Virus record (IMG/VR): IMGVR_UViG_2706794678_000004
DNA from: a virus
Taxonomy: Duplodnaviria; Heunggongvirae; Uroviricota; Caudoviricetes
Length of the DNA: 5,727 bases
Reading direction: 5' to 3' (one strand)
The translations under genes and the position numbers were made by a program. The notes beneath the pieces were generated by a model. The model had not been told where the DNA came from. It saw only the letters and a list, made by a program, of their open reading frames with translations, and did no database searches. Within the stretch, counting starts at the first letter, position 1, and each line of letters starts with the position of its first letter. This document shows, piece by piece, positions 1 through 5,727 of this stretch.

Positions 1-167
1 ACGGCAGCAAGCCAGTAATGGGTTAAGTGATAACAGGTGTCTGGAAATATAGGGGCAAATCCAGCGTTCATCAGCCCCCGCATTGCCGACAGGATCACAG
101 ACGGGGGGCGCAACTGGTTGTCGTTCAACTGGCCCAGCTACCGTTCTTGTATCAGAGGTGTGGCTGC

Positions 168-1559
168 ATGACAACACCAGTCTGGCGTAATGATGACCTG
201 GAAGGCGCTGTCATTGGCGCATTCTTTCTGCGTGGGGCAGATCATGAAGTGATGGATATTCTGATCACACTACCGGCGGACATTTTTTCTGTACGAGCGT
301 ATCGGGATATCTACACAGGCATCTGCAGACAGGCCCGTGTTTCAGGAGTGATTGACCCCGTGCTGTTGTGTAATGAGATGCCGGAACTTGCCCCGGTGAT
401 TACTGATACCGGGCGTAAAACCTGGGTGAAGTCTTCACTGGAGCACTATGTTGCAGCGTTGCGGCGCAATGCCGCACTGCGCGATGCAGAAAAAACACTG
501 AATGAGGCGCTGCAGAAATTACGTGATGCGCATACCTGTGAAGCAGCTGAAGATGCCCTGAAGGATGCGCAGAACATGATGGTCACACTGTCGACAGGAA
601 AGGGCGTCATTCAGCCGGTACATATTGATGATGTGCTTCCGGAAGTGGTTGAGCGTGTTGAATGCCGGAATCAGGGGCTGGAGAAATCCAGGACGTTGAT
701 GACCGGTATTGATGAACTGGACGCAAAAACAGGCGGTATGGAGCCCGGAGACCTGGTATTCATTGCCGCCCGTCCTTCGATGGGGAAAACCGAACTTGCG
801 CTGGACATCATCGACAAGGTGACTGAGCAGGGGCATGGTGTGCTTCTGTTCACCATGGAGATGGCGAACATCCAGATTGGTGAACGTATGGTGTCTGCGG
901 CTGGAGGGATGCCAGTATCACGCCTGAAATCTGTGGCTCACTTTGAAGATGAAGACTGGGCGCGTTTCTCACAAGGGGTGGGGCGGATGACCGGGCGCAA
1001 TATCTGGATGGTGGACCAGGCGAACCTGACCATTGATGAGATATGCGCAACAACGAAACACCATCTGATTAAACATCCGGAAACGGCGCTGGTGGTGGTT
1101 GATTATCTCGGGCTGATAAAAACCCGAACCACGGGGCGTCATGACCTTGCCGTGGGTGAAATCTCAAAGGGGCTTAAAGGCCTGGCAAAATCCGGTGGTT
1201 TTCCGTTGATTGCGCTGAGCCAGCTCTCCCGCGGTGTGGAGTCCAGACCCAATAAACGTCCCATGAACTCAGACCTGAAAAATTCCGGAGAAATAGAGGC
1301 GGATGCAGACATCATTCTGATGCTTTACAGGGATGAAGTGTACAACCCGGATACACAGGCTACAGGCATAGCAGAAATTAATATCACGAAACAACGTAAC
1401 GGTTCTCTGGGGACGATTTACCGGCGTTTTTATAACGGACATTTTCTGCCTGTGGACCAGGAAAGCGCACAGGTTCTTTCCACCCCAATGCGGCAGCCCC
1501 AGCCGCGCAGATACAGCAATACACGTACCGACAGCAGTAAGATGGAGCGTTTCTTTTGA
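168..1559 (+). CDS. Replicative DNA helicase, DnaB family (phage replication module)
   Basis: The reading frame is open from 27, but the ATG at 168 is preceded by AGAGGTG (154-160) at about 9 nt and gives 463 aa, a typical DnaB length. The 47 residues upstream are Cys/Arg/Gln-rich and unlike DnaB. Motifs read directly: 'DLVFIAARPSMGKTELALD' (Walker A-like), 'FEDEDWARFS', 'LIALSQLSRGVESRPNKRPMNSDLKNSGEIEADADIILMLYRDEVY' (DnaB C-terminal RecA-like domain). Stop TGA at 1557-1559. Confidence 0.85.
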   Translation: MTTPVWRNDDLEGAVIGAFFLRGADHEVMDILITLPADIFSVRAYRDIYTGICRQARVSGVIDPVLLCNEMPELAPVITDTGRKTWVKSSLEHYVAALRRNAALRDAEKTLNEALQKLRDAHTCEAAEDALKDAQNMMVTLSTGKGVIQPVHIDDVLPEVVERVECRNQGLEKSRTLMTGIDELDAKTGGMEPGDLVFIAARPSMGKTELALDIIDKVTEQGHGVLLFTMEMANIQIGERMVSAAGGMPVSRLKSVAHFEDEDWARFSQGVGRMTGRNIWMVDQANLTIDEICATTKHHLIKHPETALVVVDYLGLIKTRTTGRHDLAVGEISKGLKGLAKSGGFPLIALSQLSRGVESRPNKRPMNSDLKNSGEIEADADIILMLYRDEVYNPDTQATGIAEINITKQRNGSLGTIYRRFYNGHFLPVDQESAQVLSTPMRQPQPRRYSNTRTDSSKMERFF

Positions 1560-1813
1560 ACAACCAGACAATGACTTTTACCTCTGAACAATTGCGTAAA
1601 CACGCGCAGGAAATGTTGCGACAGGCGGAACAACTGGAAAAAACAGGTGTAACAAAAGATGCCATTCGTCGGGATATGGTGCCAGCGCTCAGGGAACTGA
1701 TGCAGGCGAAACATCGCGCACAAAAAGCGGTGGATGAGCTCGTTGATTGTGTGGCAGAGCTGGAAACCAAAGTTGGAAAGTTTGAAAAAATGGTGCAGGA
1801 GGTGCTGCGCTGA
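1556..1813 (+). CDS. Small hypothetical phage protein (predicted coiled-coil, 80-85 aa)
   Basis: ORF in the six-frame track. A TTG at 1556 overlaps the helicase stop (tTTGA) with GGAG at 1544-1547 about 8 nt upstream; the first ATG is at 1571 with no obvious SD. Charged, heptad-like composition (EQLRKHAQEMLRQAEQLEK...ELETKVGKFEKMVQEVL). Its stop TGA (1811-1813) overlaps the rusA ATG (TGATG). No family recognised. Confidence 0.5.
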   Translation: MNNQTMTFTSEQLRKHAQEMLRQAEQLEKTGVTKDAIRRDMVPALRELMQAKHRAQKAVDELVDCVAELETKVGKFEKMVQEVLR

Positions 1814-2184
1814 TGCGCCATGAGTTTATTTTACCTTATCCGCCGACGGTGAATACTTACTGGCGACGTCGTGGCAGCACATATTTTGTATCAAAAGTTG
1901 GTGAGCGTTATCGCCGTGATGTGACGCTAATTGTTCGCCAGCAGCGGCTGAAATTAAACCTGTCCGGAAGGCTGGCGATAAAGATTATTGCAGAGCCACC
2001 GGATAAGCGCCGTCGTGACCTGGACAATATCCTGAAAGCACCACTGGATGCGCTGACGCATGCCGGACTACTCATAGACGACGAGCAGTTTGATGAAATC
2101 AATATTGTGCGCGGTCAGCTCGTTCCTGGTGGGCGACTGGGCGTGAAGATTTATGAAATCACAGGTGATAACGATGGCGCGTGA
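1813..2184 (+). CDS. rusA: Crossover junction endodeoxyribonuclease RusA (Holliday junction resolvase)
   Basis: 123 aa; '[15 protein letters not shown]' and '[30 protein letters not shown]' closely resemble the E. coli RusA family as recalled (…DRRRRDLDN…DALT…DD). ATG at 1813 is coupled to the upstream stop. Confidence 0.9.
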
Positions 2185-2560
2185 TATTCAGCAGGTTATG
2201 GAACGGTGGGGGGCTTGGGCTGCAAACACTCATGAAGATGTATCCTGGGCGTCGATCGCTGCTGGTTTTAAAGGGTTAATTCCGTCGAAAGTGAAATCAC
2301 GCCCTCAGTGTTCTGATGATGATGCAATGATAATTTGTGGCTGTATGGCCCGGTTGAACAAGAAAAATCAGGATTTGCACGATTTGCTGGTGGATTATTA
2401 CGTAGGTGGAATGACTTTTATGAGTCTGGCACGGAAACATGGGTGTTCGGATACCTGTATTGGCAAGCGCCTGCAGAAAGCGGAAGGGGTTATTGATGGC
2501 ATGTTGATGATGCTTGATATCCGGCTGGAGATGGACAGATACGTAGAACGAATTATGTAG
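2174..2560 (+). CDS. Q: Late-gene antitermination protein Q (small QuuD/YbcQ-type)
   Basis: The ATG at 2174 is preceded by AGGTGA (2163-2168) and overlaps the rusA 3' end by 11 nt. 128 aa '[61 protein letters not shown]...[26 protein letters not shown]' matches the DLP12 QuuD-type Q antiterminator as recalled. Position immediately upstream of a promoter/terminator pair and the lysis module fits. The track ORF start at 2153 lies inside rusA and is less likely. Confidence 0.85.
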
Positions 2561-2564
2561 GTGC

Positions 2565-2594
2565 TTGACCAGACACATTGTCCGGGGCTATATT
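2565..2594 (+). promoter_or_regulatory. Candidate late promoter (PR'-like): TTGACC-18 nt-TATATT
   Basis: -35 TTGACC at 2565-2570, 18-nt spacer, -10 TATATT at 2589-2594, starting 5 nt after the Q stop codon. Predicted transcript start near 2601-2603; the leader begins with hairpin CGCCAG-caaaat-CTGGCG (2602-2619). Confidence 0.45.
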
Positions 2595-2655
2595 CCTCAC
2601 GCGCCAGCAAAATCTGGCGTCGGGATTGGAACCCCGGATAGAGACCGCGACAGAC

Positions 2656-2680
2656 ACACGCCGCGAGCGTGTTTTTTATT
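2656..2680 (+). terminator. Intrinsic terminator (tR'-like) ending a ~75 nt leader RNA
   Basis: Stem ACACGC (2656-2661), loop cgcga, stem GCGTGT (2667-2672), followed by a run of six T then ATT (2672-2680). Confidence 0.5.
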
Positions 2681-2805
2681 GTCGTATGCACGCGCACATC
2701 TGAATTATGGTGGGGCGCATGGGGGAGCTGAAAAGCTCGCCGGTCGGTTTCCCGGTAGTTCCAACCCTGTGCGTCTCACCACCCGATGATTGGAACCTGA
2801 CGGTG

Positions 2806-2834
2806 TTGACAGTTTCAGGTTTGCAGTTTACATT
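2806..2834 (+). promoter_or_regulatory. Second candidate sigma70 promoter (consensus -35 TTGACA)
   Basis: TTGACA at 2806-2811, 17-nt spacer, TACATT at 2829-2834 (4/6 match to TATAAT). Function unclear; it may be the true late promoter or a promoter for the downstream ORF6N gene. Confidence 0.3.
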
Positions 2835-2869
2835 TCCCCGCGGTGCTCAAAACACCTCGAAAGCGGTAT

Positions 2870-2897
2870 CCACACCCGATAGCCATGTGGTTTTTTT
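2870..2897 (+). terminator. Candidate intrinsic terminator
   Basis: CCACA (2870-2874) ... TGTGG (2886-2890) stem with an 11-nt loop, followed by seven T (2891-2897). The loop is longer than ideal. Confidence 0.35.
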
Positions 2898-3040
2898 GTG
2901 TCCAGAATTCTTGGTTTATGACCGGGTGTGCGGCTAATACAATACCAGCAATGGAAATACGCCCGCCGACTTTCGACGGTTTTGAGCGCCCGGTCACCCT
3001 CTCAAAAGGGGTAAATCAAAATATTCGAAAGGACATGTCT

Positions 3041-3604
3041 ATGAATCGCACGTCTATTGAAAAACTCCCGTCACTTACGCATAACCATCTTCCTGTCATG
3101 ACAACAGAGCTGCTGGCTGATTTGTACGGAACAGAGCGCCAGCGTTTGACAAACAATTTCAATCGAAACAAAGAACGGTTTATAGAAGGTAAACATTTTT
3201 TCCTGATAGAAGGTGATGCGTTACGAGAGTTGAAGAACGAAAACTCTTTAAGAGTTTCTGTGAAAATTGCCCGTAACGTTCGCTCCCTCATCCTCTGGAC
3301 AGAACGTGGCGCAGCCCGTCACGCCAAAATGCTCGAAACCGATCAGGCGTGGGAAGTGTTCGAAAAACTGGAAGACTGTTATTTCAACCAGAAACAGCCA
3401 CCAGCGGCACAAAACACATCTATCGAAAATGATGGATGCGCATTACTGAGCCACTTCGATAAACACGGTCAGGTTGAGTTCACGGAAAAGGTACCCGCCG
3501 ATGCGATGGTATGTACTCTGGAACGGTTTAAATTTTATCTGGAGCAACACGGGTGGATCGTTGCCCGTAAAGAGCAACTGGTGGAGCGGTTGATGCGGTT
3601 TTAA
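3041..3604 (+). CDS. ORF6N-domain protein (phage antirepressor / Rha-like DNA-binding family), 187 aa
   Basis: The ATG at 3041 is preceded by AAGGA (3027-3031) at 9 nt; the 66 codons upstream in the same frame (from 2843) are Cys/Trp-rich and overlap the promoter/terminator region. 'LPVMTTELLADLYGTERQRLTNNFNRNKERFIEGKHFFLIEGDALRELK...LWTERGAARHAKMLETDQAWEVFEKLEDCYF' matches the ORF6N domain pattern as recalled (V-LDsdLAeLYG-etk-LN--v-RN--RF-e-F-L---E...fTE-Ga--ls--l-sd-A). Stop TAA at 3602-3604. Confidence 0.65.
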   Translation: MNRTSIEKLPSLTHNHLPVMTTELLADLYGTERQRLTNNFNRNKERFIEGKHFFLIEGDALRELKNENSLRVSVKIARNVRSLILWTERGAARHAKMLETDQAWEVFEKLEDCYFNQKQPPAAQNTSIENDGCALLSHFDKHGQVEFTEKVPADAMVCTLERFKFYLEQHGWIVARKEQLVERLMRF

Positions 3605-3680
3605 AAATTTTTTCCGAAAACTTTACGATCGTAAAAAGTTGAATATCCTGTTAAGAGTGGTTACTACGCCACACAGCTTA

Positions 3681-3705
3681 AACCCGCCGATGAGCGGGTT
3701 TTTTT
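3681..3705 (+). terminator. Intrinsic terminator downstream of the ORF6N gene
   Basis: AAACCCGC (3681-3687 core CCCGC), loop cgatga, GCGGG (3694-3698), followed by seven T (3699-3705). Confidence 0.65.
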
Positions 3706-3755
3706 ATACCTGAAAAACGGCACAGGACGTTAAACGTGCTGGTGGTCAGATGAGT

Positions 3756-3784
3756 TTGCAGATGTGATGACATATGGTTATTAT
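3756..3784 (+). promoter_or_regulatory. Candidate promoter for the tRNA array
   Basis: TTGCAG (3756-3761), 17-nt spacer, TATTAT (3779-3784); the -10 ends 9 nt before the first tRNA 5' end (3794). Confidence 0.3.
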
Positions 3785-3793
3785 TCTGCCTCC

Positions 3794-3870
3794 GGCCCTT
3801 TAGCTCAGTTGGTCAGAGCGAGCGACTCATAATCGCCAGGTCGCTGGTTCAAGTCCAGCAAGGGCCACCA
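3794..3870 (+). tRNA. ileZ: tRNA-Ile2 (anticodon CAT, lysidine type; ileX/ileZ-like), CCA encoded
   Basis: Cloverleaf read by hand: acceptor GGCCCTT/AAGGGCC, D-stem GCTC/GAGC, anticodon loop CTCATAA (CAT at 3828-3830), T-arm GCTGG-TTCAAGT-CCAGC, discriminator A, CCA 3868-3870. Closely resembles E. coli ileX as recalled; tRNA-Met cannot be excluded from the anticodon alone. Confidence 0.85.
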
Positions 3871-3871
3871 A

Positions 3872-3948
3872 CCACCACTAGCTCATCCGGATAGAGCATC
3901 AACCTTCTAAGTTGACGGTGCGAGGTTCGAGTCCTCGGTGGTGGGCCA
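3872..3948 (+). tRNA. argN: tRNA-Arg (anticodon TCT), CCA encoded
   Basis: Acceptor CCACCAC/GTGGTGG (unusual C1-G72), D-stem GCTC/GAGC, anticodon stem TCAAC/GTTGA with loop CTTCTAA (TCT at 3906-3908), T-arm CGAGG-TTCGAGT-CCTCG, discriminator G, CCA 3946-3948. Confidence 0.8.
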
Positions 3949-3950
3949 GC

Positions 3951-4026
<76 letters not shown>

Positions 4027-4029
4027 TAT

Positions 4030-4104
<75 letters not shown>

Positions 4105-4548
4105 GCGAGATTTGAGACGAAGGTTGTTATTTGCACTGACACAATATTGTGTGGGAATGTCTGACTCCTTACCATCTCCTGTTCTGTGATGTTGTTTTGT
4201 TGCAGTTCCAGTGCTCTTTTTTCAGCACCAGAATGGTGCATTGTCGGTCAGGTTACGTAGTGAACCTCTGGCAGGGGACTGATGATTCATCATTCTGGTG
4301 TTGTAAATATCTCTTCGGACAACTTACAAAATATTCTAAGCAAACCCCGGGAACACACTCTTAACTGCCTTGGCTGGCGGTTTTTTGTACAGCGCTCGGT
4401 ATGTGTGAGCTGGAAATCAGATTTTGCATGGACTGGAATCATGCTGTTATTTAGGGGCGAAGAACTGGCTTTTTCTTCCGCCTTCTCACCAGTAACGATT
4501 AGAAAAATAATGAAATGCCCCCCTCCGGGGAGGAGGACCGTAGAAAAA

Positions 4549-4811
4549 NNNNNNNNNNNNNNNNNNNNNNNNNNNNNNNNNNNNNNNNNNNNNNNNNNNN
4601 NNNNNNNNNNNNNNNNNNNNNNNNNNNNNNNNNNNNNNNNNNNNNNNNNNNNNNNNNNNNNNNNNNNNNNNNNNNNNNNNNNNNNNNNNNNNNNNNNNNN
4701 NNNNNNNNNNNNNNNNNNNNNNNNNNNNNNNNNNNNNNNNNNNNNNNNNNNNNNNNNNNNNNNNNNNNNNNNNNNNNNNNNNNNNNNNNNNNNNNNNNNN
4801 NNNNNNNNNNN
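4549..4811. other. Run of 263 N (assembly/scaffold gap or masked sequence)
   Basis: Uninterrupted n characters. All track ORFs crossing it (4282-4845 +, 4290-4823 -, 4515-4853 +, and the X-containing part of 4486-4992 -) are artefacts inside the N run. Confidence 0.99.
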
Positions 4812-4992
4812 GTATCTGACCATGTTGTTTCAGGTCAGATATTAGCGACCTGAGTTTGTTTTCGTCGTTGGGTAATGCTTTATCGAACAGGCGTTTACCT
4901 GAACGATTAATGGCAACAGCGTGATGCGTATCTTTACCGACATCAACGCCGATAAAGACCTGGACGGATTCGTAATCGCTGGATTCGGTCAT
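4812..4992 (-). CDS. IS110-family (DEDD/Piv-type) transposase-recombinase, N-terminal 60 codons only (5' partial; rest lost in the N run)
   Basis: Minus-strand ATG (complement of 4990-4992) with GGGAG SD about 6 nt upstream. 'MTESSDYESVQVFIGVDVGKDTHHAVAINRSGKRLFDKALPNDENKLRSLISDLKQHG' has the IS110-family N-terminal signature (hydrophobic-G-[IV]-D-V-[GS]-K with the first catalytic Asp, then NDE..L..L as in IS900/IS110 recalled). Confidence 0.7.
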
Positions 4993-5205
4993 TCTGTCTC
5001 CCTTGTATATGGGTTAACCAGATAACCACGGGGAGCAGGTACCGGCATCCACGTTACAGACGGTCCCGGCAAAAGTGCCTGACCTGACCCCTATTAGCGG
5101 TTACCAGCGCCCCACCAGACCCGGTGACATCACCCCCCGGATCATGGACGACTGGGGGCAGTAATCATGCCGGGTCTGGCTGGCTAACACCCCATTATAA
5201 GGGGT
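4812..5205 (-). mobile_element. IS110-family insertion sequence, partial (recombinase 5' end plus upstream non-coding end); boundaries not determinable
   Basis: Recombinase N-terminus plus about 200 nt of GC-rich, stem-rich sequence upstream of it (4993 to about 5205). IS110 elements lack terminal inverted repeats, so the junction with phage DNA before the holin start (5230) cannot be placed by eye. Confidence 0.4.
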
Positions 5206-5229
5206 ACGAATAAAGTAACGGGGCGGGAT

Positions 5230-5445
5230 ATGTATCAGATGGAAAAAATATCAACAGGCATTGCCTACGGCACCTCCGCCGGCAGTGCCGGCTACTGGTT
5301 TTTGCAGTGGTTGGATCAGGTCAGTCCATCACAGTGGGCTGCGATTGGTGTGCTGGGAAGTCTGCTTCTGGGGCTTCTGACTTATCTGACAAATCTGTAT
5401 TTCAAAATAAGAGAAGACAAGCGTAAGGCTGCGAGAGGTGAATAA
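5230..5445 (+). CDS. S: Class II holin, S21-type pinholin with dual start (Met1/Met4)
   Basis: 71 aa '[71 protein letters not shown]' is near-identical to the phage 21 S21 pinholin as recalled. Two TMDs, with a Gly/Ala/Ser-rich TMD1. Stop TAA at 5443-5445 overlaps the next ATG (TAATG). Confidence 0.9.
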
Positions 5446-5727
5446 TGTCGCCATCATTACGCAAGGCTGTTGCAGCTGCTATTGGTGGTGGGGCTGTTGC
5501 TATAGCATCTGTGTTAATCACTGGCCCAGGTGGTAACGATGGTCTGGAAGGTGTCAGCTACATACCATACAAAGATATCATTGGTGTATGGACTGTATGT
5601 CACGGACACACCGGAAAAGACATCATGCTCGGTAAAACGTATACCGAAGCAGAATGCAAAGCCCTCCTGAATAAAGACCTTGCCACTGTCGCCAGACAAA
5701 TTAACCCGTACATCAAAGTCGATATAC
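5445..5727 (+). CDS. R: SAR endolysin (R21-like lysozyme), 3' truncated by window end
   Basis: Hand translation from the ATG at 5445: '[94 protein letters not shown]'. The N-terminal Gly/Ala-rich weakly hydrophobic segment is a signal-anchor-release (SAR) domain, followed by a lysozyme domain start resembling phage 21 R as recalled. It is absent from the ORF track because no stop lies within the window. Confidence 0.85.

Follow-up and report, generated by a model that had tools for sequence, protein, structure and literature searches.

The interval between tRNA-Gly and the holin gene in this phage sequence is very probably a 680-bp non-coding spacer of a Shigella sonnei lambdoid prophage, split by a copy of the insertion sequence ISEc20, with the run of Ns inside it representing an assembly gap over that repeat. 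A preliminary description made from the sequence alone had treated the interval as a Stx-type cargo slot whose content was a genuine unknown. Closed relatives support neither point: in these, positions 4105-4548 are the start of the 680-bp spacer, and closed genomes with an insertion at the same site show only spacer and the remainder of a 1,450-bp ISEc20. Ordinary spacer shared with related prophages, together with a standard IS remainder at the same site, is also the outcome under which the preliminary description had been prepared to give up its own proposal. The finding is therefore an ordinary one and already essentially known in its parts (a known IS, a known spacer and a repeat-induced gap), and it shows that a slot with a "missing toxin" and an N run could be explained without new sequencing, by exact-protein look-up of closed genomes.

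The window, by which we mean the whole 5,727-nt stretch analysed, carries, from left to right, a gene for a replicative helicase, a small ORF, rusA (1813-2184), Q, a gene with an ORF6N domain (3041-3601) and four tRNAs; the tRNA-Gly-to-holin interval comes next, and after it a class II holin gene and the 5' part of an endolysin gene (Table 1). An isrK/C4/ORF6N antirepressor module is sited between Q and the tRNAs. The interval under study (4105-5229) comprises 444 bp with no credible ORF, then 263 N, then 408 bp of an IS110-family element, and leads into the holin. RefSeq labels the tRNA array of the relatives, which is the same as the one found here, Ile-Arg-Thr-Gly. The lysis genes resemble the cassette of phage 21 (S21 pinholin, R21 endolysin) in that the holin matches PF04971 and begins MYQME, giving a dual start at Met1/Met4, and in that the lysozyme gene overlaps the holin stop codon. 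PF00959 was found on the endolysin gene of one relative (locus L022), and the holin is 100% identical to its counterpart in the IS-free locus L025. The difference from phage 21 lies upstream of the holin, where an IS splits the leader at a distance of 10 bp from the start codon.

Table 1. Features of the window discussed in the text (positions are those of the window unless a locus is named).
Feature	Position	Strand	Basis or remark
Q antiterminator	2174-2557		PF06530
Promoter-like site TTTGCA-18-TATTAT, just 5' of tRNA array	3755-3784	+	consensus scan only
Four-tRNA array	3794-4104	+	ARAGORN; Rfam tRNA matches
tRNA CAU (Met/Ile2)	3794-3870	+	ARAGORN
tRNA Arg-UCU	3872-3948	+	ARAGORN
tRNA Thr-UGU	3951-4026	+	ARAGORN
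tRNA Gly-UCC	4030-4104	+	ARAGORN
ORF, 61 aa		-	overlaps tRNA-Gly
Module A, 3' trailer of tRNA cassette	4105 to ~4390	+	spacer 1 to ~290
Conserved structured RNA	4132-4304	+	RNAalifold, 54 sequences
ORF, 71 aa, GTG start	4149-4364		low credibility
ORF entering the Ns	from 4282		98 aa in locus L022 (8470-8766)
Terminator-like hairpin and T-run, end of tRNA cassette	4363-4388	+	scan
Start of module B, untranslated leader of class II holin genes	4404-4548, on into gap	+	
GC-rich terminator-like hairpin within module B	4517-4538	-	scan
N run, assembly/scaffold gap	4549-4811		263 N
ISEc20 transposase, first 60 codons (DEDD IS110-type)	4812-4992	-	start at 4992
ISEc20 non-coding left end, 227 nt, predicted bridge-RNA region	4993-5219	-	terminus ...AAAGTAAC at 5219
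Last 10 bp of original spacer (GGGGCGGGAT), between IS and holin ATG	5220-5229	+	identical to L025 spacer 671-680
Holin, class II (phage 21 S-type), 71 aa	5230-5445	+	PF04971 'Bacteriophage P21 holin S', E = 1.5e-35
Endolysin gene, 5' part (RrrD/R21-like)	5445-5727	+	RefSeq 'lysozyme RrrD' in homologues

In Stx-converting phages of the 933W/H-19B type, the late region runs through Q, a short-RNA/terminator region, tRNAs, the slot, holin and endolysin. The window shares with these phages the order Q, tRNAs, slot, S and R, which the preliminary description had recognized and which is borne out by the match of Q to PF06530, the ARAGORN tRNA assignments and the match of the holin to PF04971. It departs from them in its tRNA set (Ile2-Arg-Thr-Gly), in the phage-21 class II holin, in the isrK/C4/ORF6N module between Q and the tRNAs and in the slot itself, which contains 680 bp of non-coding DNA in place of stxAB or any other ORF. 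No Stx-like ORF was detected in the slot or in the intact 680-bp spacer, where no ORF has a Pfam match, and since the intact slot of the relatives measures only 680 bp, stxAB could not fit into it. Other elements of the preliminary description also stand: nothing resembling StxA or StxB is encoded, the ORFs of 4105-4548 are short or odd (and, as found here, match nothing in Pfam or PHROGs), and the N run is present. Its IS110-type recombinase can be named as ISEc20 at 99-100% identity, but what is visible of it is mostly the 227-nt non-coding left end and not coding sequence. Transcription of the slot from a putative Q-dependent late promoter is plausible.

Relatives were located by exact-sequence look-up of the window's RusA protein, and closed and draft genomes obtained in this way gave 100% matches to window positions 1-4548 and 5220-5727. 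CP022457.1 (locus L027), the genome of Shigella sonnei 2015C-3566 (PMC6456863), is 99.96% identical over 1-4548. Positions 4105-4548 are 100% identical in seven complete E. coli genomes, and in each uninterrupted locus fetched they form the first two thirds of a tRNA-Gly-to-holin spacer of ~680 bp that carries no annotated CDS. The complete IS-free spacer of 680 bp occupies 8293-8972 of locus L025, with which both flanks of the interruption are collinear: window 4548 aligns with L025 8736 and window 5220 with L025 8963, and between these two points lie exactly 226 bp of ordinary spacer without an IS. Comparison of the whole spacer with a phage database returned weak partial matches only, which lie 3' of tRNA-Gly in the LT-IIb phage and vB_EcoS-683R6 and cover 45 nt before the holin; the nmpC-essD intergenic region of K-12 DLP12 has no similarity to the spacer. 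On sequence comparison, the 680-bp spacer is a mosaic of two modules, here called A and B.

The sequence from 4812 to 5219 (or 5228) is 99-100% identical to more than 1,200 records annotated 'IS110-like element ISEc20 family transposase'. A scan of contigs with the IS end yielded 11 copies of ISEc20, which were used to define its ends and targets, the ends being fixed from eight full copies aligned by their ends. The full element is 1,449-1,450 bp long and reads GTGCCCC...AAAGTAAC in the orientation of the window. The full copy at locus L013 encodes a 398-aa transposase that matches PF01548, the N-terminal DEDD (RuvC-like) domain (E = 8e-49), and PF02371 in its C-terminal part (E = 8e-22), and the 60 codons visible in the window are identical to the N-terminus of this protein. 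The ends of the element, GTTACTTTATT... and ...AATAGGGGCAC, are not inverted repeats, and the combination of a 227-nt left end with a 26-nt right end is the pattern of the IS110 group. The readable part in the window is the 5' 408 bp, or 28% of the element. Its terminus lies 10 bp 5' of the holin ATG and abuts GGGGCGGGAT-ATG, and these last bases of the spacer are likely the ribosome-binding region of the holin. The copy in the window thus agrees with annotated ISEc20 in nucleotide sequence (99-100% over 408 bp), in terminus, in the first 60 amino acids and in its G-run target, and differs in its exact location, as this precise IS/holin junction is absent from 5,426 complete E. coli genomes. 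ISEc20 occurs in multiple copies in the sampled Shigella and E. coli genomes, and it is one of the 12 IS types resident in S. sonnei 53G (PMC7373316).

The content of the gap can be predicted from two loci in which ISEc20 has hit the same G-run of the same spacer, one in S. flexneri SFBU1023 (L013) and one in E. coli ECMA0423 (L019). In both, the distance equivalent to that from window 4548 to 4812 is 1,271 bp, made up of 230 bp of spacer and 1,041 bp of IS. By analogy, the gap in the window is predicted to hold ~1,271 bp, namely spacer positions 445-674 and the distal 1,041 bp of ISEc20, and on this basis the slot most likely measures 2,133 bp, not the 1,125 bp shown. The right flank of the IS in L013 and L019 is not a holin, and these loci are rearranged. 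Because the exact junction is absent from the complete E. coli genomes, we infer the simple-insertion structure from two exact junction flanks and the analogous genomes. A short-read assembly would have broken at this place because ISEc20 is multicopy and module B recurs in other prophages.

The number of Ns is an argument against a simple insertion, as 263 is unequal to the predicted 1,271 bp and a real size estimate would imply a deletion derivative. The gap would then be truly 263 bp long, after loss of the larger part of ISEc20, of some of the spacer or of both, with a dead IS stub left beside the holin. As 263 is no conventional placeholder length, it may come from a size estimate made by the scaffolder; in IS-rich Shigella genomes, deletions caused by IS elements and truncated copies of these are frequent, and the relatives are annotated with many partial transposase pseudogenes. 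We nevertheless consider such a deletion unlikely, given that on the right side ISEc20 ends exactly at its terminus, within a G-run of the kind that it usually targets, that the left flank ends in the middle of unique spacer and not at an IS end, that full-length ISEc20 occupies the same site in other genomes and that scaffold gap estimates over repeats are unreliable.

It is highly improbable that the gap conceals additional cargo, such as a moron, a toxin or a defence gene, besides the IS remainder and spacer. The gap sequence is unread, and this position hosts morons in other lambdoid phages: stx is sited after the tRNAs in Stx phages, and DLP12 has nmpC between quuD and essD. Against this, both flanks are collinear with the 680-bp spacer in genomes that are 100% identical on either side, IS insertions at the same site hold nothing else, the distance from end to end is ~1,440-1,450 bp in all eight aligned full copies of ISEc20, and the one copy that was translated contains a single 398-aa transposase ORF. 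Likely nothing is hidden in the gap beyond the known parts.

Under the simple-insertion reading, two mosaic modules, A as tRNA trailer and B as holin leader, would make up the 680-bp non-coding spacer; ISEc20 (1,450 bp) would recently have entered a G-run 6-10 bp 5' of the holin start in the antisense orientation; and the assembly would have broken over the repeat, so that the scaffold shows 263 Ns for ~1,271 bp. Such an insertion places 1.45 kb of antisense IS between the leader and the lysis cassette. Since the 10 bp next to the ATG are retained, lysis-gene expression would probably change little, provided that read-through by Q-modified polymerase occurs. The insertion may be seen as a further step in the IS-driven decay of prophages in Shigella, and as a natural case in which ISEc20 has taken a G-run target, here one in the likely ribosome-binding region of a holin.

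The choice of this site is in keeping with the other copies of the element. Flanks of ISEc20 are G-rich at about nine independent sites (...GGGGG | IS | GGGG/GGCG...), and in E. coli ML35 the element likewise lies 5' of a class II holin, at a target (GTCTGGGGG|GGGGCCGGA) that resembles the one in the window (GTCTGTCGGGGG|GGGGCGGGA). In the IS110 group, the long left end encodes a bridge RNA that specifies both target and donor, and the right end is short (PMC11208160, Durrant et al. 2024). As in the IS621 bridge-RNA system, ISEc20 pairs a long left end with a short right end, inserts in a sequence-specific manner and has a left end predicted to fold into two stem-loops (z = -2.55); a TTGACA in its right end could complete a junction promoter, as in IS621. 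One of the loops also carries segments identical to both sides of the donor junction. In this second stem-loop, TAATAGGGG repeats the right-end terminus exactly, a match reached by 4 of 300 shuffles, and GTAACGTG agrees at every base with the bottom strand of the right-end | left-end junction, a match that 21 of 300 shuffles reached; in the folding model, a stem-loop with such segments has the look expected of a donor-binding loop. Short similarities to the two strands of the G-run target are seen in the first stem-loop, at CUGCCCCCAGUC and CCGGGGGGUG. Unlike in IS621, this target-loop complementarity is short and indistinguishable from chance, and the match CGGGGGG in the left end was not significant against shuffles (131/300). 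By analogy with IS621, we infer on good grounds that targeting by ISEc20 would be RNA-guided. As IS110 targets are RNA-chosen and all copies examined sit in G-runs, the G-run before the holin would be a natural target of ISEc20.

The DNA between tRNA-Gly and the gap shows no sign of coding capacity. Six spacer ORFs compared with Pfam and PHROGs gave no match, and a 63-aa 'hypothetical protein' annotated in locus L008 is not conserved in the S. sonnei-type spacer. One candidate for a small protein would be the 98-aa ORF starting at 4282, which is called as a gene in one assembly (L022) and is intact in closed S. sonnei-type genomes. We give this possibility very little credence: the ORF matches nothing in Pfam or PHROGs, it runs from module A into module B, two modules that are found independently of one another in other genomes, and it is frameshifted by a 1-nt deletion in L002, a relative that is 99% identical. 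Homologues of the region have many indels that are not multiples of three, and its variation instead fits RNA pairing.

Module A goes together with the tRNA array. Homologues with 70-75% identity follow tRNA-Gly in the LT-IIb prophage, phage vB_EcoS-683R6 and other prophages, and a conserved 20-mer of the module retrieved at least 120 stretches of viral contigs; in 54 of 64 distinct sequence variants, tRNA-Gly(UCC) is located directly 5' of module A. An alignment of 54 sequences yielded a conserved structure composed of a closing helix, in which 4132-4138 pair with 4209-4215, and a long imperfect hairpin of ~29 bp, in which 4222-4252 pair with 4265-4304. In this alignment 97.5% of cells are paired, compared to at most 59% when the partners are slid, and the covariation score of 0.247 (0.185 when shuffled) was reached in none of 500 shuffles. 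Nine pairs show changes on both sides. About a dozen positions are predominantly G-U and would be C-A on the opposite strand, which assigns the structure to the plus-strand RNA. Folded as a single sequence, 4105-4395 gives no significant structure (z = -1.16), and the support for the structure therefore comes from the comparative analysis alone. Searches of Rfam 15 found no non-tRNA match at E <= 1 in the window from 4105 to 5229, and in the intact spacer of another locus (L001 6001-6681) nothing but two weak plant-microRNA matches, which at E 0.2-0.4 are at chance level and far below the gathering score. A literature search for phage tRNA-trailer RNAs found nothing relevant.

In our reading, the tRNA cassette is a self-contained unit, and module A supplies its 3' trailer and its terminator. 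The terminator-like hairpin and T-run at its end have an equivalent GC hairpin and T-run in the EC571 and RM9088 homologues. The promoter-like site just 5' of the array suggests that the cassette may have its own transcription independent of Q. In terms of what marks a moron-type autonomous unit, the candidate promoter and terminator of the tRNA cassette come from consensus scans alone. The long duplex of module A would most likely be a hairpin for processing or stabilisation, perhaps with an RNase III site, or else form the body of a small RNA derived from the trailer. A more far-reaching proposal, to be held tentatively and on balance doubtful, is that the region from the 4132-4304 structure up to the terminator at 4388 is an undescribed and widely conserved phage non-coding RNA, which would be transcribed from the cassette's own promoter in the lysogen and would work in trans, as a regulator or a sponge, or else serve as a switch, operated by RNase III processing, by which tRNAs and lysis mRNA are uncoupled.

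The nearest conceptual analogue of module A may be 3'ETS-leuZ of E. coli, reportedly an RNA derived from the 3' external transcribed spacer of a tRNA transcript. The two have in common a position directly 3' of the last tRNA of an operon, an intrinsic terminator at the end, predicted in the case of module A, and a conserved structure. There is no sequence similarity between the two, and the long near-perfect duplex of module A, in contrast to 3'ETS-leuZ, looks more like an RNase III substrate. The conserved RNA after tRNA-Gly(UCC) in many lambdoid prophages is the sole potentially new item of this analysis and a modest lead; should it prove functional, the known regulatory RNAs of phages would gain a tRNA-trailer RNA.

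Module B (spacer 300 to 649/675) is present at ~85% identity in ~1,650 of 5,426 E. coli genomes, has no conserved ORF, and in phage contexts is located directly 5' of a class II holin. A strong plus-strand terminator lies within it ~35 nt before the holin (L025 8906-8937). The minus strand has a conserved promoter-like sequence, TTGACA-17-TAAAAA, and ~100 nt past it a 12-bp stem with an internal GAAA loop and a U-run; these elements are at L025 8740-8797 and 8833-8861. Such an arrangement may specify a ~100-nt small RNA on the minus strand that is antisense to the holin leader and falls within the gap of the window. In a covariation check of the 12-bp stem, for which the search pattern fixed the 5' arm, two variant 3' arms favour opposite strands. 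Module B also adjoins iss in the phage remnants of ColV plasmids.

The stretch following the antiterminator gene Q, read in the preliminary description simply as a late promoter and terminator, proved to be more complex, as it contains four Rfam hits, all scoring above their gathering thresholds, and an ORF6N antirepressor-like gene (see table). Together these look like an antirepressor control module, positioned immediately 3' of Q and resembling P1 immI and Gifsy-1 isrK-anrP.

Coordinates of features in the window and in related loci (L numbers)
Feature	Location	Strand	Evidence or remark
Rfam hits between Q and the ORF6N gene	window 2588-3003		four Rfam matches
c4-a1b1	window 2588-2640		Rfam, above gathering score
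isrK	window 2601-2677		Rfam, 77.5 bits, above gathering score
C4 antisense RNA	window 2703-2786		Rfam, 71 bits, above gathering score
sRNA-Xcc1	window 2920-3003		Rfam, 77.4 bits, above gathering score
ORF6N antirepressor-like gene	window 3041-3604
tRNA-Gly(UCC) trailer RNA structure	window 4132-4304	+	alignment A4
Second minus-strand hairpin	window 4538-4517	-	beyond the candidate RNA
ISEc20 left end	window 4993-5219	-	TACTTT, -10-like hexamer
Candidate minus-strand RNA	L025 8731-8861	-	holin-upstream leader
Locus with ISEc20 5' of a holin gene, E. coli ML35	L003 2878-3060
IS3-family element in helicase gene	L022, L024, L028, ~3300-4580
Module B on ColV-type plasmid pE956_1	L006 3001-3344		further instance L007

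The trailer of tRNA-Gly(UCC) contains a conserved plus-strand RNA structure with covariation support and many G-U pairs; it matches no Rfam family and recurs in at least 54 different variants from lambdoid prophages. In the uninterrupted spacer between this tRNA and the class II holin gene in L025, the part masked by the N run of the window encodes a candidate minus-strand small RNA, in which a conserved promoter-like site (TTGACA-17-TAAAAA) is followed by ~100 nt, then by a 12-bp stem containing an internal GAAA loop, and finally by a U-run. Such an RNA would run antisense to the late transcript immediately 5' of the holin gene. This holin-upstream leader (module B) is additionally retained at ~85% identity beside iss and fragments of Rz/Rz1, both on ColV plasmids and in chromosomal islands; among E. 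coli genomes it occupies 643 plasmid places, and it is without annotation at every place.

ISEc20, the IS110-family element splitting the spacer, occupies a site identical to that of the window in S. flexneri SFBU1023 (L013) and E. coli ECMA0423 (L019). In both, GGCGGGCTCCCGTTTTTT and then an unrelated ORF (MAKKDDNLKRL...) stand at the other flank in place of the holin gene, which suggests either that the locus was rearranged between ISEc20 copies or that the element has a second target of similar sequence. A further copy in E. coli ML35 lies 139 bp 5' of a different class II holin gene, in a target (GTCTGGGGG|GGGGCCGGA) similar to that of the window. G-rich holin leaders may be recurrent ISEc20 targets. 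The 26-nt right end of the element in L013 contains TTGACA, and in a circle joining the two ends this hexamer would be ~17 nt from TACTTT; circularized ISEc20 would have the same arrangement as the junction promoter described for IS110 elements.

Several closed genomes with the same prophage carry an IS3-family element that splits the replicative helicase gene. The prophage is decaying through IS insertion at more than one place; the helicase gene is intact in the window.
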